From NCBI GenBank assembly GCA_965211635.1, contig OZ242948.1:1460653-1524652 (forward strand): a stretch of 64,000 nt of DNA. The letters run 5' to 3'. Below, piece after piece: positions 1,155 through 55,935 of this stretch. How positions within the stretch are numbered: position 1 is the first letter of the stretch; the number at the start of each line of letters is the position of its first letter. Both the position numbers and the translations under genes were made by a program. The notes under the pieces were generated by a model. That model did not search any database. It was not told the DNA's origin and saw only the letters and a list, made by a program, of their open reading frames with translations. Source of the DNA: Dehalococcoidia bacterium (lineage in GTDB: Bacteria > Chloroflexota > Dehalococcoidia > Bin125).

Positions 1155-1308
1155 CCTCCAGAATGCGCCGATAAGTCCCAGTCCCTGCTTCACGCTGGGA
1201 CCCGTTCCCCTCTCCCCCCGCTCCACGAGGGGCGATACCGCAAGTCCACTTCCCCTCTCCCCCCGCTCCGCGGGGGGAGATGCGGAAGGCAGAGGGGGGC
1301 TCCCCGCC
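1155..1308. repeat. Family B GC-rich hairpin repeat units (TCTCCCCCCGC..GCGGGGGGAGA / GAAGGCAGAGGGGGGCTCCCC)
   Basis: Same modules recur at more than 12 intergenic sites in the window; copy ends 2 nt before the ATG at 1309. Confidence 0.7.
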
Positions 1309-1839
1309 ATGCCTCCCGACGACCTGCTCCACGGCCTCCCGCCAATCCTCCCCGACGGCCCCATCCGCGCCCTGATTCTCGGCTCGTTCCCCAGCGTGCA
1401 ATCGCTGGAGCGGCAACAGTACTACGCCCACCCCCAGAACTGGTTCTGGCGAGTGATGCAGCACTGCGGCGTCGTGGACGACGCCGGCGCGGCGTACTCG
1501 AAGCGGGTCGAGCAGGTCCGGTCCGGGCGAATCGCCATCTGGGACCTGTACGAGCGGGTGCGTCGCGAGGGCTCGGGCGACGACAAGATCCGCGACGCCG
1601 TGCCGAACCGAGTCGGCGAGCTGCTGGAGTCACGTGGCCCGTTCCCAATTCTGCTCAACGGCCGTCGGTTGAGGGAGTTCCGTCGGGCATTCCCCGACCT
1701 GAACGCAGAGCTGATCGCCCTACCAAGCACCAGTCCGCGTCCGCTGCATTGGAACACCGAGGAGTCGAGGTCGGCGGCGATCGAGGAGTGGTGCGCGGCG
1801 TTCGCGCTGCAGTGTGATCGGCATACAGTGGACGGCTAG
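1309..1839 (+). CDS. Hypoxanthine/deoxyinosine DNA glycosylase, UDG family 6-like
   Basis: LILGSFPS..S...YYAHPQNWFW motif; ATG at 1309 derived from the ORF frame; repeat-derived GAAGGCAGAGG sits just upstream. Confidence 0.65.
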   Translation: MPPDDLLHGLPPILPDGPIRALILGSFPSVQSLERQQYYAHPQNWFWRVMQHCGVVDDAGAAYSKRVEQVRSGRIAIWDLYERVRREGSGDDKIRDAVPNRVGELLESRGPFPILLNGRRLREFRRAFPDLNAELIALPSTSPRPLHWNTEESRSAAIEEWCAAFALQCDRHTVDG

Positions 1840-2125
1840 CTCACGACCGATCGCGAAAGAAAGCGACGTGTACCACTCAGTCGAGGAAGAAGAGCTTCCA
1901 GCGGAGCACCTGGACAAGATCGCCGACATTCTCGGTCGGCTGGACGTAGCCAGCGAGCCGTCGAGCATGGACATCCCCGGATTCCAACTTCGACGTCTGG
2001 ACGGCTATCACGAAGGTCAATGGGCCGTACGGGTTGCCGATGACCTGCTGATCAGCTTCCGCTTCGTCGGCAGCGACATCACCGAGGTCGACCTGCTCTC
2101 TTCCGCCCAAGGAGGCCCAACATGA
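1814..2125 (+). CDS. higB: RelE/ParE-superfamily toxin, HigB-like (alternative GTG start at 1868)
   Basis: About 90-100 aa; C-terminal IPG..L..L.G...W..RV....ISFRF pattern of the plasmid-killer/HigB family; directly followed by a HigA-like gene with ATGA overlap. Confidence 0.55.
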   Translation: MIGIQWTASSRPIAKESDVYHSVEEEELPAEHLDKIADILGRLDVASEPSSMDIPGFQLRRLDGYHEGQWAVRVADDLLISFRFVGSDITEVDLLSSAQGGPT

Positions 2126-2409
2126 GGATGGCCAATCCACCCCATCCGGGAAGATCGCTGCTCCGGGACTGTATCGAGGAATCCAACCTCAGCATCGCCG
2201 GAGCGGCGGAGCGCCTGGGCATCCAGCAGTACTACCTCGAAGAGGTCTGCCGCTGCGAATCGCCGATCACACCGATGATCGCGATCCGCATCGTCGCAGA
2301 ATTCGGGGGCGGCGCAGAGACGTGGCTGGCGATGCAGTCGGCGCACGACCTGTGGTTGATGCGGGAGATTCTGGCTGTGTTCGAGGGATCTCAGTCGGAG
2401 CAGGCATAA
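2122..2409 (+). CDS. higA: HigA-family HTH (XRE) antitoxin
   Basis: MRMANPPHPG...L..LS...AA..LG......L..........A.R.....G....WL..Q...DLW is the canonical HigA N-terminus and HTH. Confidence 0.75.
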   Translation: MRMANPPHPGRSLLRDCIEESNLSIAGAAERLGIQQYYLEEVCRCESPITPMIAIRIVAEFGGGAETWLAMQSAHDLWLMREILAVFEGSQSEQA

Positions 2410-2467
2410 GAATTGTTAGTGATTGAACGCCAGACGTCTGAGATTCCGACAGCGATCCTGATCACCT

Positions 2468-2587
2468 CGTCATTGCCGCGCTCCGCCGCGGCAATCTCGC
2501 TGTGCGGGGCACGGACGTCTGTGCTGCACGCGGCGAGTGATCCCCGCCTTCGCGGGGACAGGCTCCGCGGCAGGCGCGGGTATGACG
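2468..2587 (+). repeat. Family A dual-hairpin element, copy 1 (variant with inner CCCCGCCTTCGCGGGG hairpin)
   Basis: CGTCATTGCCGCGC..GCGGCAATCTCGC ... GCGGCAGGCGCGGGTATGACG; about 90% identical to the copy at 8658-8777. Confidence 0.8.
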
Positions 2588-2703
2588 TTGGTTGTTTGGG
2601 GGCGGGTACAACGTTGGTTGTTTGGGGGCGGGTACAACGTTGGCTGGATGGGAGCGGGTATGACGCTGGTTGGGCGCGGGTATGACGCTGGTTGGTTGGG
2701 GCG
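2572..2703 (+). repeat. Short tandem repeat, about 25-bp unit x5 (GCGGGTA[TC][GA]ACG[TC]TGGTTG[TG]TTGGGG)
   Basis: Read directly: five consecutive near-identical 22-26 bp units derived from the tail of the family A element. Confidence 0.8.
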
Positions 2704-2728
2704 GAAGTGGCTCTCATTCTGTGGTTTC

Positions 2729-3019
2729 TCAGGCCAAATCGAGATAGAGGTCCCTCCACTCAGGATTGAACTCGTCGATTAGACCGCGACGACGGGCCTT
2801 GCTCCAGCGCTTGATCTGCTTCTCCCGAGCGATCGCCTCGTCCATGCGGTCGTGTGGCTCCATCCAGACCAGCTTGTCGATCTGGTAGCGCCTGGTGAAG
2901 GCGGAACCTTCTCCTCTCTTGTGTTGCCAGACTCGGCGAACGAGGTCGGCGGTGACTCCGGTGTAGATCGCTCCGTGAGGTCGGCTGGCGAGGATGTAGA
3001 CGCAGGGCTGGCGCGGCAT
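2729..3019 (-). CDS. GIY-YIG nuclease family protein (small YhbQ/COG2827-like)
   Basis: CVYILASRP.GAIYTGVT.DL.RRV.QHK.G.G...TRRY.....VW.E......A...EK.IKRWS.A.K..LI...NP.W.DL; 96 aa. Confidence 0.8.
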   Translation of the reverse strand: MPRQPCVYILASRPHGAIYTGVTADLVRRVWQHKRGEGSAFTRRYQIDKLVWMEPHDRMDEAIAREKQIKRWSKARRRGLIDEFNPEWRDLYLDLA

Positions 3020-3049
3020 GGTCGGCAGAGTAGCGTGGGTTCGTCTTCG

Positions 3050-3618
3050 TCACGGCGAGATACCCGCGGCAAGCGCGGGTATGACGGTGGTTGGTGGCGG
3101 GAGAGTGACGGGATTACGCCCCCTCGTCATTGCCGCGCTTGCCGCGGCAATCTCGCCGTGCCGGGTACTGGCGTTGGTCCTGGAAGCGGCGAGATACCCG
3201 CGGCGAGCGCGGGTATGACGGGGTTGGTTAAGCGCGCTTCCCCACTTCGTCATTGCCGCGCTCCGTCGCGGCAATCTCGCCGTGCCGGGTACTGGCTTTG
3301 GTCCTGGTGGCGGCGAGATACCCGCGGCAAGCGCGGGTATGACGGGGGGTCTTGGGTCGCCCCTCCACCTCGTCATTGCCGCGCTCCGTCGCGGCAATCT
3401 CGCCGTGCCGGGTACTGGCGTTGGTCCTGGTGGCGGCGAGATACCCGCGGCAAGCGCGGGTAGGACGGGGGTCTTGGGTCGCCCCTCCACCTCGTCATTG
3501 CCGCGCTCCGTCGCGGCAATCTCGCTGTGCCCCGGTCTCGCGTTGGGACTGGAAGCGGCGAGATACCCGCGGCAAGCGCGGGTATGACGGGGGTTTGGGG
3601 GGCGCGGGTATGACGGTG
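3050..3618 (+). repeat. Tandem array, about 4.6 copies of a 122-123 bp unit built from family A hairpin pairs
   Basis: Unit boundaries at 3125, 3248, 3371 and 3493; unit = CGTCATTGCCGCGCTCCGTCGCGGCAATCTCGCC-spacer-GGCGAGATACCCGCGGCAAGCGCGGGTATGACGG-spacer; the spacers are conserved, so this is not a CRISPR array. Confidence 0.85.
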
Positions 3619-3628
3619 ATCTACGCCG

Positions 3629-6600
3629 TCAGCGGTCCAGGATCGCAGCGACCCTCCGCGCCACCTCCGAGAACCACGACACCTCCGACACGCTCAACCC
3701 CCGGCCCAGCACCTTCGATTCTCGGTAGCTGAGCCACTTCTTGAGGACCTGGTAGCCGCCTAATCGGTATTCCCACACCTCGACCGGCACATCCCGCCAG
3801 TACGCCCGATCGTTCAGATATACGTCTACCACGTCTCCCCGACGCTCGAGCTTGCCCTGGCCGGGCATGACGGCTTGATTGGAGCCGAAGTGGCCCCAGC
3901 CGGCGGTGAGGTGGAAGTCGGCCGGTTGCATGGGGTTGGCGTCGACCGTGGTGGGGACGGCGATGTGGGTGTGGTCGGCGAGGAGGTCGGCGACATCGGA
4001 CTCGGTGTCGAGCAGGCGGGCGAGGCGGTGGCCTCGGGCGGCGGACTGGGCGAGGTCGGCGGGGTCGTCGGGCAGGGGAATGCGGGGCCAGCCCATGCGC
4101 AGACCGCCGGCGTTGGCCTCGCGGTAGGCGGGGTCGTGCAGCGTGGCGAGGACGTGGTGGAAGAGGTCTTCGGGCGAGGCGTCCATGGAGTCGATGTAGG
4201 CCCGCGCCTGCTCGCTCAGGTTGGCGGTGCGCTTGACGCCGTCGACCTCCTCGCCGAGCAGCTCGTCTCGGAGGTAGAGCGGGAAACACGTAGCGCTTCG
4301 ATCCATAAGGTCTAGGCAGCCAATACAAGAAAGAACCTGTGGGGGAGACCATTCTCGTCTGGGCTTCTGTTGGGATACCAAGGTCAGATTGTCGGCGAAT
4401 ACATGTGGACGGTACTTCGGCCGCGGACGGTCCAACAACTCGCTGGCCGGAGCCCAGTAGAGCCAACGTGCATCGAATGGTCGGTACGAGTAGCGGATCA
4501 GTTCTGAGCCATCGACGTCCATGTAAGGGCCCAGTCTCACAGCGAGGAGATCATGGTCAATATCCACGACCAACTCGTCGTTGCCGGTCTTGACTCCTGC
4601 GTAGTAACCGGGGAACAAGTCCGGAAGAGACGGCATGTTAAACCATCCCTTACTTGGTTCGAGCGGGGCAAAGGGGAGCCCGACCTTAGGCTCCGAATCG
4701 ATTTCCTTATACAACTCCACCGGTTCTGTGCCGGCCGAGCATTCCAATGCCTTCAGTTTCTCTACGCCCCAAAGGTCCCTCCATCCAACGCTCGATGCTG
4801 GCTCGTGTTTCTCCTTGCGAACAAGAGTCGCAATCGCCGTACCTACCTGGATGCCGACCGGATCGTCCTTGGTCGAGAAGACGCTCGGATCGGGATCACC
4901 CTCCGGTGTGAGCTTGCCGGTGCGGTACTTGTCGCCGTTGAGGTTGTCGATGCGGATGATGTCGAATGCGTCGAGGTAGCGCTGTCTCATGCCGGGGAAG
5001 GAGAGGCCGTCGAGCCAGGAGTAGTTGCTGATGAAGCAGACAATGCCCTTGCCCGTCTTCTCGGCGATGCGCCGCTCGGCCATGCGGAAGAAGCGCACGT
5101 AGAGGTCGTTGAGTCCCTGGCCCTGCGGCTTGGGCACGTCGGCTCCGGAGACTGGCTGCTTGACCGTGCGGTAGGCGTCCGACAACGCCCGCTCCTCCGC
5201 CACGTCGGGCACGCCGGGGAAGCCGTTGTAGGGCGGGTTGCCGAGCACGACGAGGATCGGGCGCTGCTGCTTGACCTCGTTCGCGCTGCGGCGCTCCTGT
5301 TCTAGCTCGGGGAAGGGCAGCGGCTTGGTCGTGTGCGGCTCCCAGCCGGTCAGGGCGTTGGTCAGGAAGACCCCGGCGCGCTGCTCTGTCGAGAGTCCCG
5401 CGCCCAGGCGCTCCAGCGCGAGGCCGATTTCGAGGTGCGAGACGACGAGCGGCGCGGGCATGATCTCGAACCCAAAGACCCGCGTCGCGGCGGCCTGTCG
5501 GACCGACTCGGCCCAGGTCGCGCCGCCCGAGGCCTGCTCGGTCTCGGCGATCCGGCGCAGCGTCTCGACCAGGAAGGCGCCCGTGCCGCAGCAGGGATCG
5601 AGCACGTAGACGCGCTCGTCGGCAAGGCCCTTGGCGATTCCCAGATCGTCGCGCAGCGCCCGGTCAACCCGGGCGACCATGTAGCGCACGATTTCGCGCG
5701 GCGTGTACCAGACGCCGAGCTGCTTGCGCAGGTCGGGATCGAATGCTTCGAGGAAGGGCTCATAGAAGTACTGCACCGCCTCGCCCTCCGAAAAGCGCTT
5801 GAGAAACGCCTCGCGGTCAACGCGGTCCAGCGCCGCCTCGGTCCAGTCCAGCACCTCGTCCAGCCCCAGCCGTTCCAGCCGGCCGGGATCGGTGATCTGG
5901 TGGAAGAGCATGCGCAGCACCGGCGCGCGCAGCTCGTAGACGGTGTCCTTCCAGCCGAAGCGTCCCGATTTGCCGGCCCGCGCCCAGAGCACCCAGGCGG
6001 CGAAGACTCCGTAGAACAGCGTCTGCACCAGTGTCGAGCGGAAGAACCGGCCGCCGTCTTCGCTCTCGAACGACATCCCCAGCGCCTGCTCGATCGCCTC
6101 GCGGATCGTCTGGAGCGAGTCCTCTTCCTCCGCCGCCTGCTCGACCCGCTGCAAGGCGTCGCGGGCGTAGGAGGCGAGCAAACGGGCGAGGTCGCGCGGT
6201 TCGGAGATCGTCGAGCGGTGCGACATCACGCGCAGCAGGTACTCGCCCAGCGAGATGCCGTGCCGGTTGGCGGCTCGGGTGGTGTGTTGGAGCAGGTCGT
6301 CGAAGGCAGGGATGGAGTCGGCGAGCGAGTAGCGCTCGAGCGTCGCCTTTGCGCCGTCGTTGTCCTGTCCGACCAGCGCGAACTCGCGCAGGTTGGTCAC
6401 GAGGACGAGGTTGCGCGCTTGCCAGTAGCTGTCGACCTGTTCGGAGGCGATCAGCGCGTCGAGGTCGGCGTCGGCGCCCTTGACCTCGACCACGCCGCGG
6501 TCGGGGTCGGTGTTCTCGCCGGAGAAGAATCCGAGGTCGGGTTGGCCGGAGACGGTCTCGCTGTAGTGAACGACGGCGCGCACTTTGGGCGAGAGTTCAT

Positions 6601-6724
6601 CGCCGACGGCGTCGAAGAGGTTGTCGAGCGCGGTGTAGTGGGAGAGCTCGGGTGTCCCGACGCGGCTGCCGGCTGAGATGGCGTCGAGGTACCGCTTGAC
6701 GGCCTGGCGGAGTTCGACGGTCAC
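3629..6724 (-). CDS. MmeI-family Type IIL restriction-modification enzyme (N-terminal PD-ExK-like nuclease, gamma-class N6-adenine MTase, C-terminal TRD)
   Basis: 1031 aa; DPDRGVVEVKGAD (D..EVK) near the N-terminus; motif I VLDPCCGTGAFLV; motif IV LGNPPYNG; C-terminal W.Y.LGGYQVLKKWLSYR as in MmeI/PglX-like enzymes; GTG start overlaps the upstream stop (GTGA). Confidence 0.8.
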   Translation of the reverse strand: MTVELRQAVKRYLDAISAGSRVGTPELSHYTALDNLFDAVGDELSPKVRAVVHYSETVSGQPDLGFFSGENTDPDRGVVEVKGADADLDALIASEQVDSYWQARNLVLVTNLREFALVGQDNDGAKATLERYSLADSIPAFDDLLQHTTRAANRHGISLGEYLLRVMSHRSTISEPRDLARLLASYARDALQRVEQAAEEEDSLQTIREAIEQALGMSFESEDGGRFFRSTLVQTLFYGVFAAWVLWARAGKSGRFGWKDTVYELRAPVLRMLFHQITDPGRLERLGLDEVLDWTEAALDRVDREAFLKRFSEGEAVQYFYEPFLEAFDPDLRKQLGVWYTPREIVRYMVARVDRALRDDLGIAKGLADERVYVLDPCCGTGAFLVETLRRIAETEQASGGATWAESVRQAAATRVFGFEIMPAPLVVSHLEIGLALERLGAGLSTEQRAGVFLTNALTGWEPHTTKPLPFPELEQERRSANEVKQQRPILVVLGNPPYNGFPGVPDVAEERALSDAYRTVKQPVSGADVPKPQGQGLNDLYVRFFRMAERRIAEKTGKGIVCFISNYSWLDGLSFPGMRQRYLDAFDIIRIDNLNGDKYRTGKLTPEGDPDPSVFSTKDDPVGIQVGTAIATLVRKEKHEPASSVGWRDLWGVEKLKALECSAGTEPVELYKEIDSEPKVGLPFAPLEPSKGWFNMPSLPDLFPGYYAGVKTGNDELVVDIDHDLLAVRLGPYMDVDGSELIRYSYRPFDARWLYWAPASELLDRPRPKYRPHVFADNLTLVSQQKPRREWSPPQVLSCIGCLDLMDRSATCFPLYLRDELLGEEVDGVKRTANLSEQARAYIDSMDASPEDLFHHVLATLHDPAYREANAGGLRMGWPRIPLPDDPADLAQSAARGHRLARLLDTESDVADLLADHTHIAVPTTVDANPMQPADFHLTAGWGHFGSNQAVMPGQGKLERRGDVVDVYLNDRAYWRDVPVEVWEYRLGGYQVLKKWLSYRESKVLGRGLSVSEVSWFSEVARRVAAILDR

Positions 6725-7215
6725 TCGCGTCCCACGCCGCCTCGCCAGACGAGCGGCTCGCCGGTTTCCTCGTCCAGGAGGCCGTCAAGGATGGGCGGAT
6801 CGGCGGGGTCGGCCATGGCGGAGTCGAGTTGGGCCTGGGTCAGTCCGATGGCGACGCCTTCGAGTCGGTCGGAGAAGATCGCGCCGCTGATGTCTGCGCC
6901 AAGCAGGTTGGCTCCTGTGAAGTTGGCGCGCCAGAGTTCGGCGCCGTGCAGCACAGTGCGGGAGAGGTTCGCGTTGGTGAAATCGGCGCCGGACATGAGT
7001 GAGCCGGTCAAATCTGAGCCACGAAGATTCGCGTCAACGAACCACTTGTCCTCCGCGATCGCTCCGCGCATGTTTGAGTACGGCCAATCGATGGGAATCG
7101 GTCGCTCGCGCTCTGCGTTCTTGGGATCGGCGCGTATATCGACGATCGCCTGCTGATCACGCCGCATAAACGGGACGGATTTCCTACTGCGTGCTGGATG
7201 ATTGCTGGTCGTCAT
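6721..7215 (-). CDS. Pentapeptide-repeat protein
   Basis: Run of A(D/N)LxG pentapeptides (ANLRGSDLTGSLMSGADFTNANLSRTVLHGAELWRANFTGANLLGADISGAIFSD); ATG at 7215 preceded by GAAGGAG; stop overlaps the start of the R-M gene. Confidence 0.75.
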   Translation of the reverse strand: MTTSNHPARSRKSVPFMRRDQQAIVDIRADPKNAERERPIPIDWPYSNMRGAIAEDKWFVDANLRGSDLTGSLMSGADFTNANLSRTVLHGAELWRANFTGANLLGADISGAIFSDRLEGVAIGLTQAQLDSAMADPADPPILDGLLDEETGEPLVWRGGVGRE

Positions 7216-7642
7216 CAGCTCCTTCACCGTCCCGTTCGAACTTGTCGATCCTGAGTAGTAGGGCGACCTGTAGCTCGTACTCTTCAGGGTAGGCGCTCGC
7301 AAGCTGCTGCAAGGTCCGGGCGGCCGTCTCCCTCACCGATTCATCTGCGCTTTCCAACATCCCGACGGCTCGATGAAAGCGCTCATCCAACTGGGCTCGA
7401 TGGGCTGTTTCCGCCTGTCGTTCGCTGACTCGGCTGCGCCAAATCGCGAGCGGCAGCGCGATCACGGCGGCGGCGATCAGGCCGAAGTTGCGCACCTCGT
7501 CGGACGAGTCCCACCAGATGGCGGTGACGGCGATCAACAGGGCGAGCGCGGCCAGCGTGACCAACGCGAGCCGTGACTCCAGGCGCCAGAGCGCGGCGCG
7601 CACGAGCGCTTCCAACCACAGCAGCGGGTCGCGCCAACTCAC
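7184..7642 (-). CDS. Small membrane protein (2 predicted TM helices, acidic C-terminal tail)
   Basis: Hydrophobic segments LALVTLAALALLIAVTAIWW and FGLIAAAVIALPLAIW; start overlaps the panE stop (ATGA). Confidence 0.5.
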   Translation of the reverse strand: MSWRDPLLWLEALVRAALWRLESRLALVTLAALALLIAVTAIWWDSSDEVRNFGLIAAAVIALPLAIWRSRVSERQAETAHRAQLDERFHRAVGMLESADESVRETAARTLQQLASAYPEEYELQVALLLRIDKFERDGEGADDDQQSSSTQ

Positions 7643-8598
7643 GGCTGCGGCCCGCCCAGCTTGCCGACCAGCGTCGCGACCATCGACATCATCGGCACTC
7701 CCACGCCTAATTCACTCGCCCGCTGCACCGGTTGGCGGAAGATGGCGTCGAGTTCGAGGGGGCGGCCCTCGTTGTAGTCGATGACAGTGCTGGGGCGGTA
7801 GGCGCCCATGCCGAGGGTCTGGGTGAGGAACTGGTGGGCGAGTCGGCCGCCGTCGATGCGGACGGCTTCGCCACGCGCGTCGAGGTCGGCGTTGCCGGCG
7901 GCCACGATCTCCATGATGATCTCGTAGGCCGCGTCGTAGAGCGGCGGCTCGGTGATCACCTGGTCGACGCCGACGCCACCGGCGATCACGCAGAGGCCGT
8001 TGAAGGGGATGTTCCAGCAGAGCTTCTCCCAGCGGGCTTTGAGCAGGCTCGATTCGGGCCGGATCTCGACCTTGCTGCCGGCGAACAGGTCGACCCCGCG
8101 TTGCAGCTCGTCGGGGTCGTCGCCGTGGTGTCCGAGGTTGATCGCGCCGAACTCCTGGTGCAGGATCTGGCCCGGCTCGCCGCGGATCACGCCGATGAAT
8201 CCGAGTCCGCCGAACAGCGACGTGCCTTCCGGCAGTTGCTCGGCGATCTCATCGTCAACCGTGAGGCCGTTCATGATCGCGAGGACGCGCGTGTCGTCGG
8301 AGAGCAGCGGTCCGACAAGCGTGGGGATGTCGGGGATCGCGGTCGCCTTGAGTCCGACCAGGACCCAGTCGACGGGTCCGTGCGCGGCCAGCGCCTCGGG
8401 TGTGCGCTCGACGGTCGGGGCGTCGAGAGACAGGTCGCCGAGGTGGCTGGTCAGGTGCAGTCCGTCGGCCTTGACGGCGTCGTAGTCGCGGCGCATGAGG
8501 AAGCGGACGTCGTGGCCGGCCTCGGCGAGCCGCATGCCGAAGTAGCAACCGATCGCGCCGGCTCCGATCACCGCGACCTGTTGGGGTTGTGGATGCAA
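7639..8598 (-). CDS. panE: 2-dehydropantoate 2-reductase (ApbA/PanE family)
   Basis: N-terminal VAVIGAGAIGCYFG Rossmann motif; family-typical K...N..N and C-terminal EGRPLELDAI...A...GV..P. Confidence 0.8.
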   Translation of the reverse strand: MHPQPQQVAVIGAGAIGCYFGMRLAEAGHDVRFLMRRDYDAVKADGLHLTSHLGDLSLDAPTVERTPEALAAHGPVDWVLVGLKATAIPDIPTLVGPLLSDDTRVLAIMNGLTVDDEIAEQLPEGTSLFGGLGFIGVIRGEPGQILHQEFGAINLGHHGDDPDELQRGVDLFAGSKVEIRPESSLLKARWEKLCWNIPFNGLCVIAGGVGVDQVITEPPLYDAAYEIIMEIVAAGNADLDARGEAVRIDGGRLAHQFLTQTLGMGAYRPSTVIDYNEGRPLELDAIFRQPVQRASELGVGVPMMSMVATLVGKLGGPQP

Positions 8599-8657
8599 AG
8601 GGCGCCCCTTTGTGAGTTCGTACTGCCTTAAGACCGTCCGAATCCTGCCCAGAGCAC

Positions 8658-8777
8658 CGTCATTGCCGCGCTTGCCGCGGCAATCTCGCTGTGTTGGGCA
8701 CTGATGTCCGCGCTAAACGCGGCGAGTGATCCCCGCCTTCGCGGGGACAGGCTCCGCGGCAAGCGCGGGTATGACGG
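8658..8777 (+). repeat. Family A dual-hairpin element, copy 3 (same variant and orientation as copy 1)
   Basis: CGTCATTGCCGCGCTTGCCGCGGCAATCTCGC...GCGGCGAGTGATCCCCGCCTTCGCGGGGACAGGCTCCGCGGCAAGCGCGGGTATGACGG. Confidence 0.8.
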
Positions 8778-12402: not shown

Positions 12403-13380
12403 CTAGTCAAATGCCGGCAGGACCTCGTTGACGACGCGGTCGTACGCAGCTTGCTGGTCGTAGCCGACGAGGCGGAGGGTGATCGTGGTGGCTCCGGCGT
12501 CGATGTAGGACTGGATGCTGGCGATGCACTGCTCCGGCGTGCCCATCGCGACCCAGAGGCCGAGCATCTCGTCGGAGTACTCGGTGTTGTAGTAGGCCTC
12601 GAGGTAACGTCGCGATTCGGCCAACGCGGCGTCGCGGTCGTCGTTGACGTTGATGTTGTAGTAGATGCAAACCTCGAAGTCGTCCGGCAGCTCGCGGCCT
12701 TCCTCATCCGCGTAGCGGCGGATGTCGGCCATGTACTCCTCCACGATCGCGGGCGGCTGGAAGGTGGTCATCCAGCCGTCGCCGAGGCGCGCAGTGCGGC
12801 GCAGACCGGCCTCGCGGTTGCGTTTGAGGTCGGGGCGGGGATTGGACGTGACCCAGATCGGGATCGGCCGCTGGACCGAACGCGGCTCGATCGTGACGTT
12901 GTCGAAGTCGTTGTACTCGCCGTGGTAGGAGACGTTCTCCTCGGAGGTCAGCAGGCGCATGACCTCGATCGCCTCCTCCATGCGCTTCATGCGCGACTCG
13001 GGCGCGACGCAGAAGGCGTCGAACTCGTGCAGCATGTCGCCGCCGCCGGGCGCGGCCTGGCCCATGCAGGCGGCGAAGATGGCGCGGCCGTTGGACATGA
13101 AGTCGAGCGAGGCGTACTGGTATGCGAGCAGCAGGGCGTCGCGCAGCGGGGTCGAGGCGAAGCAGGCGGGGCCAATGCGCACGCGGTCGGTGACGACGGC
13201 CAGCGCCGACATGAGGTTGAGGGCGTCGAGGCGCGGCTTGGCCAGGATCGAGTCGCCGACCCAGACCGAGTCCCAGTGCTCGTCGGCGTCGGCGCGCTGC
13301 GCCAGGGCAATCATGTCGTCAAGAGTGGAGGCGCCGGTGACGACGCCGCGGTTGGAGAGTGTGAGTCCGAAGTTGACCAT
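12403..13380 (-). CDS. LLM-class flavin/F420-dependent oxidoreductase
   Basis: MVNFGLTL...VWVGD luciferase-like monooxygenase N-terminus; tandem paralog of 13434-14393. Confidence 0.85.
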   Translation of the reverse strand: MVNFGLTLSNRGVVTGASTLDDMIALAQRADADEHWDSVWVGDSILAKPRLDALNLMSALAVVTDRVRIGPACFASTPLRDALLLAYQYASLDFMSNGRAIFAACMGQAAPGGGDMLHEFDAFCVAPESRMKRMEEAIEVMRLLTSEENVSYHGEYNDFDNVTIEPRSVQRPIPIWVTSNPRPDLKRNREAGLRRTARLGDGWMTTFQPPAIVEEYMADIRRYADEEGRELPDDFEVCIYYNINVNDDRDAALAESRRYLEAYYNTEYSDEMLGLWVAMGTPEQCIASIQSYIDAGATTITLRLVGYDQQAAYDRVVNEVLPAFD

Positions 13381-13433
13381 GGGAGTGCTCCGTTCGTGCG
13401 AGGCAGTCTAGGGCTCGGACGGTGAGAGCACAC

Positions 13434-14393
13434 TCAGACGAACGCGGGCAGTACTTCTTCGGAGATGCGCCGATACTGTGTCGTCTGATCAGCGCTGCAG
13501 ATGCGCAGCAGAACCGAAGTGGCTCCGGCGTCGATGTAGCGCTGGATGTCCTCGACGGCCTGCTCGGGCGGGCCGTATGAGCACCAGCGGCGGACCATGG
13601 CTTCGGAGTGATCGAGGAAGTAGTAGTCGTCGAGGAAGCGCTTGGCCTCCGCGTAGGCGGCGTCACGGTCGTCGTCGATCATCACCGAGTGGAAGGCGAC
13701 CACGTCGAAGTCGTCGGGCAGCTCGCGGCCGGCCTCGGCGGCGTAGCGACGGATGTCGGCCAGGTACTCGCCCAGCAACTCCGGAGTCAGGGTCGTCGAC
13801 ATCCAGCCGTCGCCCAGTCGGGCGACGCGGCTGAGGCCGCGCTCGCGATTGCGTGCGTCGTTCGGATTGGGATTGGAGACGATCAGGATCGGGATTGGCC
13901 GCTGGATCGAGTGCGGTTCGATGGTCAGATTGTCGAAGTCGTTGTACTTGCCGTGGTAGGACGCGTCGTCCTCCGAGGTCAGCAGTCGAATGATCTCGAT
14001 CGCCTCTTCCATCCGGCCGGATCGGGTGATGGGAGGGACGCAGAAGTGGTCGAACTCCGACGCGTCGGCGGCGCCCATGCAGGCGGCGAAGGTCAGGCGA
14101 CCGTTGGAGATCACGTCGATGGCGGCAAGCTGATAGGCGAGCAGGATCGCCGGGCGGACCGGCGTCGTGGCGAAGCATCCAGGCCCGATCCGAACCCGCT
14201 CAGTCCGAGCCGCGAGCGCGCTCATCAGCGACAGAGCGTCCAACCGAGGCTTCGCCGTGATCGAGTCGCCAACCCAGACCGAGGTCCAGCGCTCGTCCTC
14301 GTCGACGAGCCGGGTCAGGTTGTACATCTCCTCCAGCGAGGAATCGCCGGTAACAACGCCGCGGTTGGTTAGGGTCAGCCCAAAGTTGGTCAC
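13434..14393 (-). CDS. LLM-class flavin/F420-dependent oxidoreductase (tandem paralog)
   Basis: MTNFGLTLTNRGVV...; about 55% identical to the downstream copy. Confidence 0.85.
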   Translation of the reverse strand: MTNFGLTLTNRGVVTGDSSLEEMYNLTRLVDEDERWTSVWVGDSITAKPRLDALSLMSALAARTERVRIGPGCFATTPVRPAILLAYQLAAIDVISNGRLTFAACMGAADASEFDHFCVPPITRSGRMEEAIEIIRLLTSEDDASYHGKYNDFDNLTIEPHSIQRPIPILIVSNPNPNDARNRERGLSRVARLGDGWMSTTLTPELLGEYLADIRRYAAEAGRELPDDFDVVAFHSVMIDDDRDAAYAEAKRFLDDYYFLDHSEAMVRRWCSYGPPEQAVEDIQRYIDAGATSVLLRICSADQTTQYRRISEEVLPAFV

Positions 14394-18032: not shown

Positions 18033-19279
18033 CAGTTCACTCCTGCGAGATCGCGCCCCGGGGCGCGTGATTGTTGCGTCGCTATCGGTCGCGGCGACCA
18101 GTGGTCCTCGTGATCTTCCCACAAGTGTCGCAGACGCGGGATTACCTGCTCAGCAAACAGGCGCGTGCTGCGCAGGGTGAGGTCGTGTGGCATGTCGCCG
18201 ACGTGGAAGACGCCGATCAGGTGTCCGGCGCGGAGCGTCTTGACGAGGTGCTCCAACTGCTCGGTCACGGTCTGGGGCGAGCCCGCGGCGAGCGAGCCGA
18301 CGTCGAGGCGTTCCTGCCACGTCGGGATGCGCGACGGCTGCGGATTGGCCAGTTCCTCCATCGTCTGCGCGGCGCGCTCGCGGATGCCGCGTTCGGTGCG
18401 CCAGCCCGGAGCTTCGGTCCAGCCGGGGAAGTCGTCCAGCGTGTGGCGGGAGGAATACTCGAAGTGCGGCTCGTAGCGCTGCTGCGCTTCGTCGTCCGTA
18501 TCGGCGACGACGATGGTCTGCGAGACCGCGCCCTGGTAGGGGTTGGGCTCGACGCCGTGGATCTCGATGCGCGACCAGAACCCGTCCATCGCCGATTGCG
18601 CCGGGGCGATGCCGCGGCTGGCGAGGCAGACGTAGTTGTACCCGCGCTCGGCGCAGAAGTCCCAGGTCTCGGAGGAGATGCCGTCGGCGGGAATCCAGAT
18701 CGGAGGGTGCGGACGCTGGATCGGCCGCGGCCAGATGTTGACGTAGCGCAACTTGTCCGAGTCGCCATTCCAGGCGAAGACGTCCGGGTCCTGCCAGGCG
18801 CGCAAGATCAGGTCGTGGTGCTCGCGGTAGACCGAGCGAAAGTCGGAGGGATTCGCGCCGTAGGCGAAGTTGGCGTCCATCGGCGTGCCCAACGGGAATC
18901 CAGCGACAATGCGCCCGCCGGAGAGGACATCGAGCATGGCGATCTCTTCGGCGGCGCGGGTCGCAGGACGGTAGAGCGCAATCGACATGCCCAACATGAT
19001 GATCGCGGCGCGCGTCGTGCGGCGCGCCAGGACGGCGGCCATGAGCTGCGGCGACGGCATCAGGCCGAAGACGTGCTGATGATGCTCGTTGAGCACCAGC
19101 CCGTCAAACCCTGCCAGCTCGGCAAACTCAAGCTGGTCGAGGTACTCGTGATACAACTGGTGACCCTCGACCGAGTCGTACAACCGAGAGTCGGCGTCGA
19201 CCCAGACGGATCGGTTGCGCTCACGGAAGTCGTCAGGCAAATGCGGCCACGGCATCCCATGAAACCAGTGGAACTTCAC
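18032..19279 (-). CDS. LLM-class flavin-dependent oxidoreductase
   Basis: MKFHWFHGMPWPH...NEHHQ; paralog of 19399-20634. Confidence 0.85.
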   Translation of the reverse strand: MKFHWFHGMPWPHLPDDFRERNRSVWVDADSRLYDSVEGHQLYHEYLDQLEFAELAGFDGLVLNEHHQHVFGLMPSPQLMAAVLARRTTRAAIIMLGMSIALYRPATRAAEEIAMLDVLSGGRIVAGFPLGTPMDANFAYGANPSDFRSVYREHHDLILRAWQDPDVFAWNGDSDKLRYVNIWPRPIQRPHPPIWIPADGISSETWDFCAERGYNYVCLASRGIAPAQSAMDGFWSRIEIHGVEPNPYQGAVSQTIVVADTDDEAQQRYEPHFEYSSRHTLDDFPGWTEAPGWRTERGIRERAAQTMEELANPQPSRIPTWQERLDVGSLAAGSPQTVTEQLEHLVKTLRAGHLIGVFHVGDMPHDLTLRSTRLFAEQVIPRLRHLWEDHEDHWSPRPIATQQSRAPGRDLAGVN

Positions 19280-19284
19280 GAAGT

Positions 19285-19398
19285 CACCCAGCTTTGCCTG
19301 GTTTCCCGCTCCCCCTGCAAGGGGGAGCGGGGAAGATTTGGCAGCTCCCGTGGAAGGAGGGAGCGGGATTTCTCTTACAGCCGTTGATGCGGCTTTGG
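19285..19398. repeat. Family B hairpin repeat (CTCCCCCTGCAAGGGGGAG variant)
   Basis: GCTCCCGCTCCCCCTGCAAGGGGGAGCGGGGAAG ... GGAGGGAGCGGG between the two LLM paralogs. Confidence 0.7.
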
Positions 19399-20634
19399 TC
19401 AGTTCGATCCTGTCAGCACCGGAGCTGGTGTCGCGACCTGCTCGGAGTCGATTGGCTTCGGCGACCAGTGGTCTTCGTAGTCTTCCCAGATGTGCTTGAC
19501 CCTGGGCATGACTTGCTCAGCGAAGAGCTTGGTCGAGGCTCGAGCCTTGTCGTCGGGCATGTCGCCGACGTGCAGCAGGCAGACCAGGTGGCCGACCTGC
19601 AGCTTGGTCGCCAGCGCTTCGATCTGCTCGGTTACCGAGTCGGGCGAGCCGGCCACGATGTAGCCCTCGCGCACCCAGTCGTCCCAGGACAGCGTGTGGG
19701 CGACGCCCAGACCCTGCGCGCCGCCGGCGCGGAGACCGGCGCGGATCGTGTTCTCGGTGCGGTAGCCCGGCGCGTCGGCGAAACCGGGGTAGACGTGCAG
19801 GCACTTGTCGAAGAAGTACTGCATGTGCTCGGTGTACATCTGCTCGGCCTGATCGTCGGTCTCGGCGACCACGATCTGCTGCGCGAACGCGCCCTGGAAC
19901 GGGTTGAAGTCGACGCCCAGCTCGCCCAGCCGGTTCCAGAAGCCCTGCATCAGCGCCTCGCCACGGACGTAGCCGTTGAACGACAGATACGAGTAGTTGT
20001 AGCCCATCTCGGCGCAGAAGTCCCAGGTCTCAACCGAGCCGCCGCCGGGAATCCAGATGGGCGGGGGCTGCTGGATCGGGCGCGGCCAGAGGTTGACGTA
20101 GCGAATCTTGTTGTACTCGCCGTTCCAGGAGAAGACCTCCGGGTCCTCCCAGGCGCGGCGGATCAGGTCGTGGTTCTCGCGGTACTTGTCACGCAGCGTG
20201 GCTGGGTTCGAGCCGAAGCAGAAGTTGTCGTCCATTGACGTGCCGACCGGGAATCCCGCGACCAGGCGGCCGCCCGACATCACGTCGAGCATCGCCATCT
20301 CTTCCGCCACACGGGTCGGCGGGTTGTACAGGGCGATCGACTGACCCAGCAGCAGCAGCGTCACGTCCTTGGTCCGACGCGCTAGCGACGCCGCCATGAT
20401 CTGCGGCGAGGGCATCATCCCGTAGGCGTTCTGGTGATGCTCGTTGACGCCAATCCCGTCGAAGCCCAGATTGGCCGCATACTCAAGCTGGTCGAGGTAC
20501 TCGTTGTACACCCGGTGCCCCTCGACCGGGTCGTAGAGCCGAGAGTCGACATCGACCCAGACGGAGCGATTCGTCTCGCGGAAATCGTCCGGCAGGTGAG
20601 GCCAGGGCATCAGGTTGAACCAGTGGAACTTCAT
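19399..20634 (-). CDS. LLM-class flavin-dependent oxidoreductase (paralog)
   Basis: MKFHWFNLMPWPH start at 20634 within the longer ORF; about 70% identical to 18032-19279. Confidence 0.85.
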   Translation of the reverse strand: MKFHWFNLMPWPHLPDDFRETNRSVWVDVDSRLYDPVEGHRVYNEYLDQLEYAANLGFDGIGVNEHHQNAYGMMPSPQIMAASLARRTKDVTLLLLGQSIALYNPPTRVAEEMAMLDVMSGGRLVAGFPVGTSMDDNFCFGSNPATLRDKYRENHDLIRRAWEDPEVFSWNGEYNKIRYVNLWPRPIQQPPPIWIPGGGSVETWDFCAEMGYNYSYLSFNGYVRGEALMQGFWNRLGELGVDFNPFQGAFAQQIVVAETDDQAEQMYTEHMQYFFDKCLHVYPGFADAPGYRTENTIRAGLRAGGAQGLGVAHTLSWDDWVREGYIVAGSPDSVTEQIEALATKLQVGHLVCLLHVGDMPDDKARASTKLFAEQVMPRVKHIWEDYEDHWSPKPIDSEQVATPAPVLTGSN

Positions 20635-24789: not shown

Positions 24790-24952
24790 GGCTCTGTCGA
24801 GCGGAGCCAGCGATGGAGCGGCGGAGCGGGACCCCCTCCGCCTTCGGCACTTCCCCCTGCAAGGGGGAGGGGGAAGAGTGAGGCCTGGGTCTCCAGAGGG
24901 ACAGGGGCGAGATCGTCAGTGGGCTAGACCAACCCGCACATACACTGACTGC

Positions 24953-35557: not shown

Positions 35558-35568
35558 GGAGTTAACTC

Positions 35569-36195
35569 ATGCTCGACCACATTGTGCTGGCCACGCCCGA
35601 CGTGCAGGCGACTGTTGACGAAATCGCAGCGGCGACGGGGGTGCGAGCTGAGGTCGGCGGGCGATTCACACAGATGGGCGCCTACAACCACCTGCTCGCG
35701 CTGCAGGACGGCGCCTACCTGGAGATCATCGGTCCCGATCCCGAGAACGAGGGCGGGGGATCGATGCCGTTCGGCCTCGATCCCGAGTCGGGACGCGGCG
35801 CGCACATCGCCCACTGGTGCTGGAAGGGCAACGAGCAGATCGACGAGCTCGCCGCTGCGATCAAGGAGGCCGGCTACGACCTGGGTCCGGTCGTCCCGCT
35901 GGGCCGCGACCTGCCCGACGGCGGGCGTCTCGACTGGCGGCTGACGATCGGCGAGTGGCCGCCGCATCTGGGTGGGTTGATCCCCTTCCTGATCGACTGG
36001 GGCGACGCGCCGCATCCATCCACCACGGCAGTCCAGGGCGTCACGCTCGCGTCCTGGCACGGGGAGCATCCCGACCTCGACACGGTGCGTGCCGCGCATG
36101 AGGTGTTGGGCATCGAGATCGAACTGCGAGAGGCGAGCGAGCCTGCCCTCGTGGCCACCTTCCAGGGCCCCGACGGATCGATCACCTACCGATAG
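35569..36195 (+). CDS. VOC (glyoxalase/bleomycin-resistance/dioxygenase) family protein
   Basis: MLDHIVLATPDV...YLEIIGPDP; tandem paralog follows. Confidence 0.65.
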   Translation: MLDHIVLATPDVQATVDEIAAATGVRAEVGGRFTQMGAYNHLLALQDGAYLEIIGPDPENEGGGSMPFGLDPESGRGAHIAHWCWKGNEQIDELAAAIKEAGYDLGPVVPLGRDLPDGGRLDWRLTIGEWPPHLGGLIPFLIDWGDAPHPSTTAVQGVTLASWHGEHPDLDTVRAAHEVLGIEIELREASEPALVATFQGPDGSITYR

Positions 36196-36205
36196 AGAGG
36201 CCAAC

Positions 36206-36835
36206 ATGCTCGATCACATCGTGCTCGCGACACCCGACGTCCAGGGCTCGGTCGCCGCGATCGAAGCGGCGATTGGCCTGCGACCCGAACTCGGCGGGCA
36301 CTTTCCCGGGCGCGGGGTCTACAACTACCTCTTGGCGTTGCAGGACGACGCCTACCTGGAGATCATCGGTCCCGATCCGGCGCAGCCGAATCCGGAAGGG
36401 CCGCTGCCCTTCGGCATGGACGACTTCGGCGGGCGCGGCGCGCACGTGCCGCACTGGTGCTGCAAGGCCGGGGCGCAGATCGAAGAGCGGGTCGCATCGG
36501 CGAAGGCGGCTGGCTACGACATCGGCGAAGTCCGACCGCTGGGTCGTCAACTGTCCGACGGGACCCGGCTCGACTGGCGCCTGACCCGCACGGTCTGGCC
36601 GCCGCTGTTGGGTGGACTGGTCCCGTTCCTGATCGACTGGGGCGACGCGCGGCACCCGTCGACCACCGCGGTCACAGGCGCGCGCCTGATCTCGTGGCAC
36701 GGCGAGCATCCCGACCTCGCCGCCGTGCGCCGCGCTCACGACGCGTTGGGAGTCGAGCTTGAGCTTCGCGAAGGTCCCACATCGGCGCTGGTCGCGGTGA
36801 TCGAGGGGCCGGGCGGATCGATTACGTTGCGATGA
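36206..36835 (+). CDS. VOC family protein (tandem paralog)
   Basis: MLDHIVLATPDVQGSV...; about 65% identical to the upstream copy; GAGAGG ribosome-binding site. Confidence 0.65.
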   Translation: MLDHIVLATPDVQGSVAAIEAAIGLRPELGGHFPGRGVYNYLLALQDDAYLEIIGPDPAQPNPEGPLPFGMDDFGGRGAHVPHWCCKAGAQIEERVASAKAAGYDIGEVRPLGRQLSDGTRLDWRLTRTVWPPLLGGLVPFLIDWGDARHPSTTAVTGARLISWHGEHPDLAAVRRAHDALGVELELREGPTSALVAVIEGPGGSITLR

Positions 36836-38359: not shown

Positions 38360-38457
38360 CCGTCATACCCGCGCTTGCCGCGGGTATCTCGCCGCAGTTA
38401 ACACGGACGTCGGTGCACATCACGGCGAGATTGCCGCGGCAAGCGCGGCAATGACGG
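38360..38457 (-). repeat. Family A dual-hairpin element, copy 4 (inverted orientation, canonical form)
   Basis: CCGTCATACCCGCGCTTGCCGCGGGTATCTCGCC-spacer-GGCGAGATTGCCGCGGCAAGCGCGGCAATGACGG. Confidence 0.8.
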
Positions 38458-38493: not shown

Positions 38494-39426
38494 TTAGTCC
38501 ATGCCGAAGGCAGCGCGGAGTTCGGCGGCGATCTGGTCGAGGGCCTGGCTGCCTTCGGGGACGGCGGCGAAGGCGCTGACGAAGCCGTGGATCACGCCGT
38601 CGTAGCGCGTGCAACTCGACTGAGTGCCGGCGGCGGCGAGCGCGGCGGCGTAGGCTTCGCCCTCGTCGCGCAGCGAGTCGTACTCGGCCGTGATCGTCAG
38701 GGAGCGCGGCAGGTTGGACAGATCGTCGGCTCGCAGCGGTGACGCGTATGGCTGCGAACCCTCAGAGTCGTCGTTCAGGTAGAGGTCCCAGAACCAGCGC
38801 ATGCCCGCCTCGGAGAGTCCGTACTCGCCGCCGCCGTTGACCTTGTACGACTCGGTCTCGAAGTTGAAGTCGGTGACCGGGTAGATCAGCACCTGCGCGT
38901 CGATCTGCGGTCCGCCGCGATCGCGCGCCATCTGTGAGACGACGGCGGCGAGGTTGCCGCCGGCCGAGTCGCCGGCGACGGCGATGCGGTCGGAGCGCCC
39001 GCCCTGCTGGTCGTACATGCTGTTGATCCAGCAGACGGCGGCGTAGGCGTCTTCGGCCGCCGCCGGATACTTCGCTTCAGGCGCGAGCCGGTAGTCGACC
39101 GACAGCACGCTCATGCCGGCGCGGTTGCAGAGCGCGCGGGCGACGGCGTCGTGCGAGTCGAGGTCGCCGATCACCCAGCCGCCGCCGTGGTAGTAGACGA
39201 TTGTGGGCAGGCCGCTGGGATCGTCGGTGGGCAGGTAGCCGCGCGCGGGGACGTCGCCGGCCGGACCGGGCACGGTCATCTCGTGGACCTGGGCGACGGG
39301 CTCGGGTTCCGTTGGCGGGCGCAGGGCTGCCATCGCCTCGCGCGCTTCCTGCGGCGACATCTCGTTGAACGCCGGCGCGCCGGCGCGCATGTCGAGGATC
39401 GCCTGGGTTTCAGCGGTGACGGGCAT
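38494..39426 (-). CDS. Alpha/beta hydrolase, HSL-type esterase/lipase
   Basis: HGGGW oxyanion motif; GDSAGG nucleophile; start 39426 with AAGGAG ribosome-binding site. Confidence 0.8.
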   Translation of the reverse strand: MPVTAETQAILDMRAGAPAFNEMSPQEAREAMAALRPPTEPEPVAQVHEMTVPGPAGDVPARGYLPTDDPSGLPTIVYYHGGGWVIGDLDSHDAVARALCNRAGMSVLSVDYRLAPEAKYPAAAEDAYAAVCWINSMYDQQGGRSDRIAVAGDSAGGNLAAVVSQMARDRGGPQIDAQVLIYPVTDFNFETESYKVNGGGEYGLSEAGMRWFWDLYLNDDSEGSQPYASPLRADDLSNLPRSLTITAEYDSLRDEGEAYAAALAAAGTQSSCTRYDGVIHGFVSAFAAVPEGSQALDQIAAELRAAFGMD

Positions 39427-39439
39427 CGTGGACTCCTTG

Positions 39440-39700
39440 GTTCCTATTCGCTCCCCCTTCCAGGGGGAGCTGTCACGTAGTGACTGAGGGGGTCCCTCCG
39501 AGTGTCGCGCATTGGCGATCGCTGGACCGGAGCCCCCCTCTGCCTTCGGCATCTCCCCCCGCTCCGCGGGGGGAGAGGAGATTAGCCTTTGGCATCTCCT
39601 CCCGCGTAGCGGGGGGAGAGGAGATTAGCATTCGGCCTTTCCCCCTGCATAGCGGGAGGAGACCGAGCGGGTCCCCGAGTAAATCGGGGACTGGACGCGT
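39440..39700. repeat. Cluster of five or more family B hairpin units
   Basis: CCCCTTCCAGGGGGAGCTGTCACGTAGTGACTGAGGGGGTCC; GGAGCCCCCCTCTGCCTTCGGCATCTCCCCCCGCTCCGCGGGGGGAGAGGAGATTAGC x2; ... Confidence 0.75.
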
Positions 39701-39703
39701 TGA

Positions 39704-55809: not shown

Positions 55810-55935
55810 CCCCATTTCCGCTCTCCCCCGCGCCAGGCGGAGATGCCGTTCCCTCATTTTCTCCCCCCGCTTCGCGGGGGGAGATGTCACGGAGTGACAG
55901 AGGGGGGCTCCCCGCCACCTCTCCGTATCAGCGAG
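55810..55935. repeat. Family B hairpin repeats in a divergent promoter region
   Basis: TCTCCCCCGCGCCAGGCGGAGA.. TCTCCCCCCGCTTCGCGGGGGGAGATGTCACGGAGTGACAGAGGGGGGCTCCCC. Confidence 0.7.

Follow-up and report, generated by a model that had tools for sequence, protein, structure and literature searches.

A GIY-YIG nuclease gene bracketed by hairpin repeats in a Dehalococcoidia genome: a probable Ssn/SRM partnership in the Chloroflexota

What is a small nuclease gene doing in the midst of hairpin repeats? The question is raised by a 64,000-nucleotide stretch of a Dehalococcoidia bacterium genome (Chloroflexota; assembly GCA_965211635.1, contig OZ242948.1, positions 1,460,653 to 1,524,652), below called the window, in which the gene for a 96-amino-acid GIY-YIG protein lies among repeats of a family termed A. 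The initial annotation, made from the letters of the sequence, had offered two answers: the nuclease might be the partner of its own hairpins, as RAYT proteins are of REP elements, or the surrounding block of about 6 kb might be a cassette bounded by repeats. The first idea proved correct but not new, since a partnership of this kind, between Ssn nucleases and SRM hairpins, was published in March 2025 (PMC11893778). Here we report that the window gene probably encodes an Ssn nuclease, for which the family A repeats would be the cognate SRM hairpins.

Chenal et al. (2025, Nat Commun 16:2388; PMC11893778) describe the Ssn family (cd10448) as single-domain GIY-YIG proteins, 94 amino acids long in Neisseria meningitidis. 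The protein of this species, SsnA (NMV_0044), recognises the hairpin repeat NTS (CGTCATTCCCGCGMAVGCGGGAATCYRG), which extends dRS3; it binds the repeat in single-stranded DNA only, and its cut lies a few nucleotides upstream. Cutting is set by three nucleotides (GTC) 5' of the palindrome and binding by the C immediately 3' of it, and the four Ssn homologues assayed for binding and cutting all behaved alike. With a generalised SRM pattern, HGTCWYN(0-2)YYVSBRHN(0-5)WNVSBRGN(0-2)RNCYNB, which is a curated search pattern and not a functional definition, 71% of ssn homologues had an SRM nearby and 42% had one on both sides.

The nuclease gene and its flanking hairpins

The gene, here called ssn, occupies 2729-3019 on the minus strand. 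As initially annotated, it is an intact open reading frame (ORF) of 96 amino acids; it matches Pfam PF01541 (E=6e-15) over residues 5-76 and is the only GIY-YIG gene in the 64 kb of the window. The AlphaFold model of the protein is one compact GIY-YIG domain (pLDDT 93.6) with no extra DNA-binding domain, and the solved structures closest to it are UPF0213 BH0048, Slx1 and the N-terminal domain of UvrC. No Ssn structure was found in the copy of the PDB searched, where similar entries were limited to UPF0213, Slx1 and UvrC domains. Residues Y8, Y19, R29, H33, E66 and N85 are invariant in an alignment of 43 homologues; from the spacing in I-TevI and UvrC we take them to be the catalytic residues. 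Homologues of about 96 amino acids number 2090. The nearest, with 81-96% amino acid identity, come from metagenome-assembled genomes of Chloroflexota/Dehalococcoidia, and a homologue from Neisseria sp., 52% identical (E=9e-38), is itself bracketed by NTS-like hairpins. UPF0213 shows distant similarity only (E=1e-6, 29% identity). Homology and predicted fold together point to membership of the Ssn family.

Family A elements are present at or near the positions initially given. The element, about 100 nt long, is however not one hairpin but a convergent pair of two oriented hairpins. Their general form is CGTC-stem-loop-stem-CTCG, with a stem of 9-10 bp and a loop of 3-5 nt. The left hairpin is of the TG type, CGTCAT-TGCCGCG-loop-CGCGGCA-ATCTCG, and the right one, on the opposite strand, of the AC type, CGTCAT-ACCCGCG-loop-CGCGGGT-ATCTCG; a spacer of about 34-45 nt separates the two. 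A pattern adapted to this form finds 12 oriented hairpins in the window, all reading CGTC-AT..AT-C, so that the experimentally critical GTC and C are conserved in every one of them. Shuffles that preserve dinucleotides would lead one to expect 0.01 copies of the core hairpin motif in the window; there are 11.

On both sides the gene is bordered by such hairpins. Upstream lies a solitary AC-type hairpin, not singled out before, which was identified by its pattern match (3056-3086, minus strand; CGTCATACCCGCGCTTGCCGCGGGTATCTCG on the gene strand). It lies 36 nt before the ssn ATG, folds with -11.8 kcal/mol (z=-3.7) and is kept at the same place in four related loci (L001, L201, L202 and L203). 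Further out follows the tandem array that had been noticed directly upstream of the gene (3122-3618, plus strand). Tandem Repeats Finder gives it a period of 123 with 3.9 copies and 90% matches over 3122-3599, and together with the hairpin pattern resolves it into four family A doublets (3125-3220, 3248-3344, 3371-3467 and 3493-3589) and a partial tail (3603-3617). Each doublet has its TG-type SRM on the plus and its AC-type SRM on the minus strand, and a single unit is predicted to form a long, imperfect hairpin (-36.3 kcal/mol, z=-6.0). The final doublet is also present in the related locus L205.

Downstream of the gene, repeat finding, alignment and pattern agree on a family A doublet in a three-hairpin variant (2468-2587, plus strand; -43.8 kcal/mol, z=-4.2). 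It consists of a TG-type SRM (2468-2499, plus), an extra hairpin (2542-2557) and a degenerate AC-type SRM ending at 2587 (minus), and the left of these corresponds in position, by alignment, to the downstream SRM of the ssn unit in L001. Overlapping its end is a 'tail stutter' (2572-2703, plus strand; repeat family D9), the five units of about 25 bp that had been read as derived from the element tail. Tandem Repeats Finder bears this out with units of 22-26 bp (2576-2672, period 26, 3.7 copies; 2643-2695, period 22, 2.4 copies), each of which joins the 3' half of an SRM (GCGGGTATGACG) to a flank of about 13 nt. Half-SRM stutters, that is a stem arm with CGTCAT/ATGACG and 8-15 nt of outside flank, were seen in three independent loci; the sites outside the window are L088 3995-4078 and L006 3480-3560, 3745-3790, 4400-4460, 4600-4640 and 4755-4800. 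Nicking and repair at the hairpin, or slippage during replication there, could have left the stutter behind.

Two further doublets lie away from the gene. A second three-hairpin copy, found by the same three means, sits between panE and the DAO gene (8658-8777, plus strand; -49.5 kcal/mol, z=-7.3). The two copies with the extra hairpin are direct repeats (family D11), 91% identical over 2485-2587 and 8674-8776, close to the 90% first estimated; the spacer of each holds the additional hairpin CCCCGC-CTTC-GCGGGG, and their degenerate right hairpins fail the adapted pattern, which their left TG-type ones match. The other, a solitary doublet in the opposite orientation (38361-38456, minus strand, with the AC type on plus and the TG type on minus), is 35 kb from ssn, had not been listed before, and folds with -43.7 kcal/mol (z=-8.9).

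Scans of the whole window with Rfam (gathering thresholds) and for tRNAs gave no matches, so the repeats are neither a known RNA family nor a tRNA-adjacent integration site. Promoter and terminator scans of 2300-3800 found no sites either, which leaves a simple terminator role of the repeats unsupported. Repeat-array ORFs of 100-200 amino acids (3050-3490 and 2391-2759, minus; 2852-3463 and 3282-3587, plus) are translated repeats, e.g. ...PALAAGISPPPGP..., which gene callers may list as hypothetical proteins.

Hairpins beside homologous genes, and their dispersal

The homologue alignment was scanned against one genome per species, which yielded 80 loci from alpha-, beta-, gamma- and delta-proteobacteria, Dehalococcoidia, cyanobacteria, Omnitrophota and others. 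For each, the best inverted-repeat pair between the 250 bp upstream and the 250 bp downstream was scored and compared with 435 random control positions in the same loci. The median score was 52 at the gene and 19 at the controls, and 85% of 86 loci exceeded the 95th percentile of the controls. The arms share the frame CGTCAT-stem-loop-stem-ATCCAG. Within it the stems are lineage-specific and still complementary (ATTCCCGC, ATTCCGGC, ATCCCCGC, ATGCCGAC, ATGCTGAAC and others); frame pairs covary (CGTCGT with ACCCAG, CGTCAC with GTCCAG), and many compensatory stem variants occur within the constant CGTC..C. Arms picked by inverted-repeat similarity alone fold with a mean of -7.7 kcal/mol (DNA folding) against -3.4 for shuffled arms. 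In 85 loci the published association of gene and SRM was reproduced: matches to the SRM pattern are enriched 28-fold in the 300 bp around the gene, with at least one match in 58% and matches on both sides in 29% of the loci; a structure-based detector finds at least one hairpin in 76% and hairpins on both sides in 49% of the 85. The nearest flanking hairpins were convergent in 25 of 41 loci.

Close relatives repeat the arrangement. At the orthologous locus of L001 (GCA_028873865.1), the gene lies between one hairpin per side, convergent, in a unit of about 480 bp, with CGTCATACCCGCGCTTGCCGCGGGTATCTCGCC upstream on the gene strand and its reverse complement downstream. At an unrelated site, rpsO/FeThRed_B, an SRM-ssn-SRM unit of about 430 bp is found in L003, L004, L005 and L203. 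Counting the window (3056-3086 upstream, 2468-2499 downstream), hairpins stand on both sides of the gene in L001, L003, L005, L201, L202 and L203 as well. The RAYT/REP-like relationship that had been suspected is thus borne out by flanking hairpins far above controls in 85 loci and by published biochemistry (PMC11893778).

Away from the gene the repeats are widespread. A scan of metagenome contigs with the lineage motif gave 103 stretches, with many matches on single contigs of 540-740 kb, among them a 740-kb contig of a related organism that carries many such stretches. In 80 loci (500 kb) we counted 118 hairpins and 27 convergent doublets, of which 21 pair one TG-type with one AC-type hairpin; about half of the hairpin copies are in such REPIN-like doublets. 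The spacers of the doublets measure 40-49 nt in 20 cases and 90-99 nt in five. Doublet ends are sharp and conserved (yTC|CGTCAT...ATGACG|Grr), and the long, imperfect hairpins into which the doublets fold have z-scores of -4 to -9. In these 500 kb around the 118 SRMs, one GIY-YIG homologue was found, and it is distant. In metagenome assemblies, the runs of N that mark scaffold gaps lie precisely within intergenic regions rich in SRMs (L086 3922-4020, L088 4169-4266). Because repeats break short-read assemblies, SRM copy numbers in assembled genomes are probably underestimated. For annotation, the repeats account for a class of spurious, repeat-derived ORFs and for assembly gaps in these genomes.

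Could the gene merely lie in a repeat-rich gap, family A being generic intergenic palindromes of the kind of REP sequences, terminators or insulators? Most SRMs are indeed far from any GIY-YIG gene, and the unrelated hairpin families D2, D10 and D14 fill intergenic gaps of the same window. Chance co-location is hard to reconcile with an association that holds in 85% of 86 loci across many phyla, with stems that change from lineage to lineage while the CGTC..C frame and the convergent orientation stay constant, with a lack of terminator-like sites in 2300-3800, and with the binding and cutting shown biochemically for four family members (PMC11893778). It is very improbable and is effectively refuted by the enrichment of flanking inverted repeats and of the SRM pattern. 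The initial annotation had held that a single GIY-YIG copy with genome-wide repeats, free of any spatial association, would speak against a partnership. Copy number and dispersal appear to be as described there; the spatial association is nevertheless present, in 85 loci. That criterion was ill-posed, because RAYT/REP systems show the same pattern: repeats spread genome-wide with a single gene are no refutation of a partnership.

The window shares with the published Ssn/SRM system a single-domain GIY-YIG protein of about 95 amino acids, a gene flanked by oriented hairpins that probably also occur as many scattered copies, and the CGTC-palindrome-C frame with the critical GTC and C. It differs in its host, a member of the Chloroflexota, in the stem of 9-10 bp, the loop of 3-5 nt and the 3' flank CTCG in place of CCAG, and also in the pairing of TG and AC types in doublets, the tandem arrays and the half-motif stutters. 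A number of points weigh against the assignment. No NCBIfam model matches the 96-amino-acid protein, and its membership of cd10448 would follow by proxy, from similarity to the Neisseria sp. protein. The published pattern, which does match the canonical NTS, matches none of the 12 window hairpins, because these have a longer stem and loop. Cleavage specific to single-stranded DNA and the cellular role in this organism would be carried over by analogy from biochemistry on members outside the Chloroflexota, and the only role shown in Neisseria is natural transformation, whose transfer to such a host is an uncertain step. Breakpoints at the repeats, described below, could also reflect ordinary homologous recombination between repeats without the nuclease. 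Weighing all this, we hold an Ssn nuclease with cognate SRM hairpins to be the probable explanation by a good measure.

If so, Ssn would bind the SRM hairpin only where DNA is single-stranded, as in replication, repair or DNA uptake, by homology with SsnA. What would matter most is GTC directly 5' of the stem and C directly 3' of it, and the nick would fall on the SRM strand, on the 5' side of the motif and a few nucleotides from it, just before CGTC. The gene is apparently single-copy, keeps its position within a clade and is bracketed by convergent SRMs, with hundreds more SRMs likely dispersed in the genome as single copies, convergent REPIN-like doublets and tandem arrays. The SRMs would also serve as points of recombination and rearrangement, which would make the neighbourhood of ssn a variable slot for defence-type genes.

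This case is a new lineage-specific instance of the known Ssn/SRM partnership, in a phylum that the main text of PMC11893778 does not mention. What it adds is modest: a hairpin variant outside the search pattern, two-type doublets, arrays, stutters and breakpoints. The partnership is thereby extended to the Chloroflexota, with a hairpin that the published pattern misses, for which reason the 71% share of ssn genes with cognate repeats is probably an underestimate. It would also provide a new pair of enzyme and sequence specificity for a family under development as single-stranded-DNA tools, and doublets, arrays, stutters and hairpin-edge breakpoints offer handles on an Ssn-dependent spread of repeats, as REPINs are thought to be spread by RAYTs.

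Compared with other known systems, the window works like RAYT/REP without being a member, since its protein is GIY-YIG and not HUH Y1. What the window appears to have in common with RAYT/REP/REPIN/BIME is a nuclease gene present once, inherited for the most part vertically and lying between hairpin repeats of its own, together with repeats that occur genome-wide, often as inverted doublets folding to a long hairpin (REPIN-like) and clustered in arrays, and hairpin recognition in single-stranded DNA, which for the window protein would hold by homology with SsnA. RAYTs, however, are HUH Y1 tyrosine enzymes with a covalent intermediate, whereas the window protein is a hydrolytic nuclease of unrelated fold, and the window system has no tetranucleotide guide of the GTAG type. 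The 'peel and paste' transposases TnpA of IS200/IS605 likewise combine a small nuclease gene with subterminal hairpins recognised strand-specifically as single-stranded DNA; the window system differs in lacking an HUH domain, any demonstrated excision or integration and, apparently, a multi-copy gene. Neisserial dRS3, intergenic mosaic elements and minimal mobile elements are hairpin repeats that flank variable genes and mark points of recombination or insertion. The dRS3 sequence ATTCCC-N8-GGGAAT is the NTS core and in Neisseria also a phage integration site; the hairpins of the present lineage likewise flank genes that vary between relatives, namely restriction-modification (R-M), toxin-antitoxin and HEPN genes, and have another stem sequence and another host. 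The UPF0213/YhbQ proteins (PDB 1zg2, 1ywl) and the Slx1 domain are the nearest solved folds and of the same size, a likeness confined to the domain; their sequence similarity is distant and no repeat partnership is known for them. With GIY-YIG homing endonucleases (I-TevI, Seg proteins) the window protein shares the catalytic domain, and a selfish-gene logic is conceivable, but their separate DNA-binding domain, cutting of double-stranded DNA and residence in introns or phages do not apply to the window gene.

Variable neighbourhoods and the question of mobility

Next to the array lie three genes on the minus strand: a Type IIG R-M enzyme of 1031 amino acids (3629-6724; PADLOC REase_MTase_IIG, E=1e-94; Pfam N6_Mtase and Type_ISP_C), a pentapeptide-repeat protein (6721-7302; Pfam Pentapeptide, E=3e-21) and a 152-amino-acid protein (7184-7642), the start of whose ORF overlaps the panE stop. 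The last two travel with the R-M gene, in identical order in L205-L207. PADLOC does not list the GIY-YIG protein itself among its defence proteins. By BLAST, the window is colinear with L001 and L002 at 1-2401, 2729-3086, 7654-8589 and from 8824 onward, so that 3087-7653, comprising the array and the three genes, is extra relative to both. The homology to L001 stops exactly at 3086|3087, the outer edge of the gene-proximal hairpin, and a further synteny break, at about 3487, also falls on a hairpin edge. In L205-L207, a more distant population (panE 81% identical), the order is DAO-panE-152aa-pentapeptide-Type IIG, then one family A doublet and an unrelated gene, with no ssn; these loci are colinear with window 8567-3487 at 78% nucleotide identity, and the same sample holds ssn at the rpsO site. 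The Type IIG gene is absent from L001, L201 and L202. Since the segment 3087-7653 is colinear in the more distant relative and its GC content matches that of the flanks, it looks ancestral, and most simply the R-M block was lost in the L001/L201/L202 lineage. On the same two observations, a recent foreign insertion of the R-M block was rejected.

These comparisons decide on the cassette that had been proposed for 2590-8650. The three-hairpin copies at 2468-2587 and 8658-8777, taken as its ends, are direct repeats of 91% identity, and an inner part, 3087-7653, is present or absent among relatives, as would suit a mobile unit with ssn, the R-M genes and panE. That unit does not hold together, however: ssn directly adjoins panE in L001, L002, L201 and L202, which lack the R-M genes, while L205-L207 have panE and the R-M genes and no ssn. 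As ssn and panE are adjacent in these four relatives, both lie outside the variable segment, whose ends, at 3086|3087 and about 7653, do not coincide with the two A copies, and the block resembles its flanks in GC. A mobile 6-kb cassette is thus improbable in the extreme. The panE/DAO gap of L001 and L002 holds another hairpin repeat in place of family A.

Genes beside ssn differ among relatives (the Type IIG R-M block, HigBA, HEPN-ApeA or nothing), as would be expected if SRMs are recombination points. On the side away from the R-M block, ssn (94% identical to the window gene in L201, 92% in L202) is followed by HigBA in the window and L001, by nothing in L201, and by a degenerate panE 3' fragment and then a HEPN-ApeA gene in L202. 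That fragment (L202 4362-4596) is a frame-shifted copy of panE residues 234-314 right after the downstream SRM, so that SRM-ssn-SRM is flanked in L202 by a direct duplication of about 240 bp of panE; its two SRMs are direct, not convergent. Defence or addiction-type genes vary beside SRMs elsewhere too: HigB/HigA (window 1814-2409, L001 10477-11017), HEPN-ApeA (L202 4618-6180), PaREP1-family genes (L096, 3839-4225; L202; L205) and a PIN-domain pair in L205 (variable genes at 1-972). This suggests variable slots for accessory genes next to SRMs.

Is the bracketed gene, then, itself an element that moves? On the main rival reading, SRM-ssn-SRM (about 430 bp) would be an active autonomous mobile element of a new mechanistic class, with the GIY-YIG protein as a 'transposase' on single-stranded DNA and the 96-150-bp doublets as non-autonomous derivatives resembling REPINs or MITEs (miniature transposable elements with inverted repeats). 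A convergent SRM at each end is the architecture of a terminal inverted repeat, and the same CGTCAT..ATCTCG ends bound the ssn unit (L001, L003, L005) and the doublets, which are dispersed and, as noted, sharply delimited. Close homologues (81-96% amino acid identity) occur in four different gene neighbourhoods. The segment with inverted hairpins at its ends has opposite orientations in L003 and L005, and the population without ssn at the panE locus has it at the rpsO/FeThRed_B site in the same sample. An IS-like architecture was also pointed out by Chenal et al., who in their discussion likened NTS-ssnA-NTS to an insertion sequence, to IS200/IS605, and to RAYTs, REPs and BIMEs (PMC11893778).

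The gene counts tell against active transposition: there is one copy in the 64-kb window and apparently one per relative, each genome with a close homologue showing one neighbourhood, and at least four genomes of the clade have the gene in the same position. A search of 28 doublet ends gave no target-site duplication, and about 200 loci yielded no pair of filled and empty sites. For 113 SRM blocks, no empty sites were seen among the loci compared, a small sample biased to filled sites. Nor did the relatives offer a clean empty site of the ssn unit at the FeThRed_B/rpsO locus: either a PaREP1 gene stands there with other repeats (L096), or the genes are in another order (L086-L097). Repeat recombination would explain the inversion and the breakpoints equally well. 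GIY-YIG enzymes hydrolyse DNA, and we know of no strand-transfer or rejoining activity among them. An active autonomous element is therefore unlikely. Somewhat less so, though still doubtful, is the broader proposal that SRM-ssn-SRM is, or recently was, a self-mobilising single-stranded-DNA element using a bare GIY-YIG nuclease, with the two-type doublets as its REPIN-like non-autonomous copies. Were it true, DNA transposition would have a sixth or seventh enzymatic route, and the 'domesticated nuclease plus genome-wide hairpins' lifestyle would have arisen independently a second time. In a weaker variant, nicking by Ssn at SRM edges would drive the gain and loss of defence genes beside ssn.

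Other repeats and rearrangements

At least two other G+C-rich hairpin repeat families, ...TCTCCCCCCGC-NNNN-GCGGGGGGAGA... and GGGGGAGCTGTCACGTAGTGACTGAGGGGG, unrelated in sequence to family A, occupy intergenic gaps of the window (1233-1291, 24827-24877, 39529-39665 with three tandem units of 43 bp, 55837-55910, 58118-58176 and 62494-62663). They also occur at L001 8912-8956 and L096 4330-4440, and stand in for family A at the panE/DAO gap of L001.

One group of relatives has the FeThRed_B gene beside dnaA, another has it beside rpsO (L086-L097 versus L003, L005 and L203), and an rve-type transposase is inserted in the FeThRed_B region of one strain (L087 3993-5006). The region, possibly near the replication origin, has been rearranged between close lineages. 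Finally, the window contains adjacent segment pairs of 150-300 bp, 71-82% identical and 640-1355 bp apart (12671-14365, 18849-20633, 35568-36680 and 38624-40186; D3/D4, D7/D17, D8/D16 and D15/D19), which are most likely tandemly duplicated paralogous genes.

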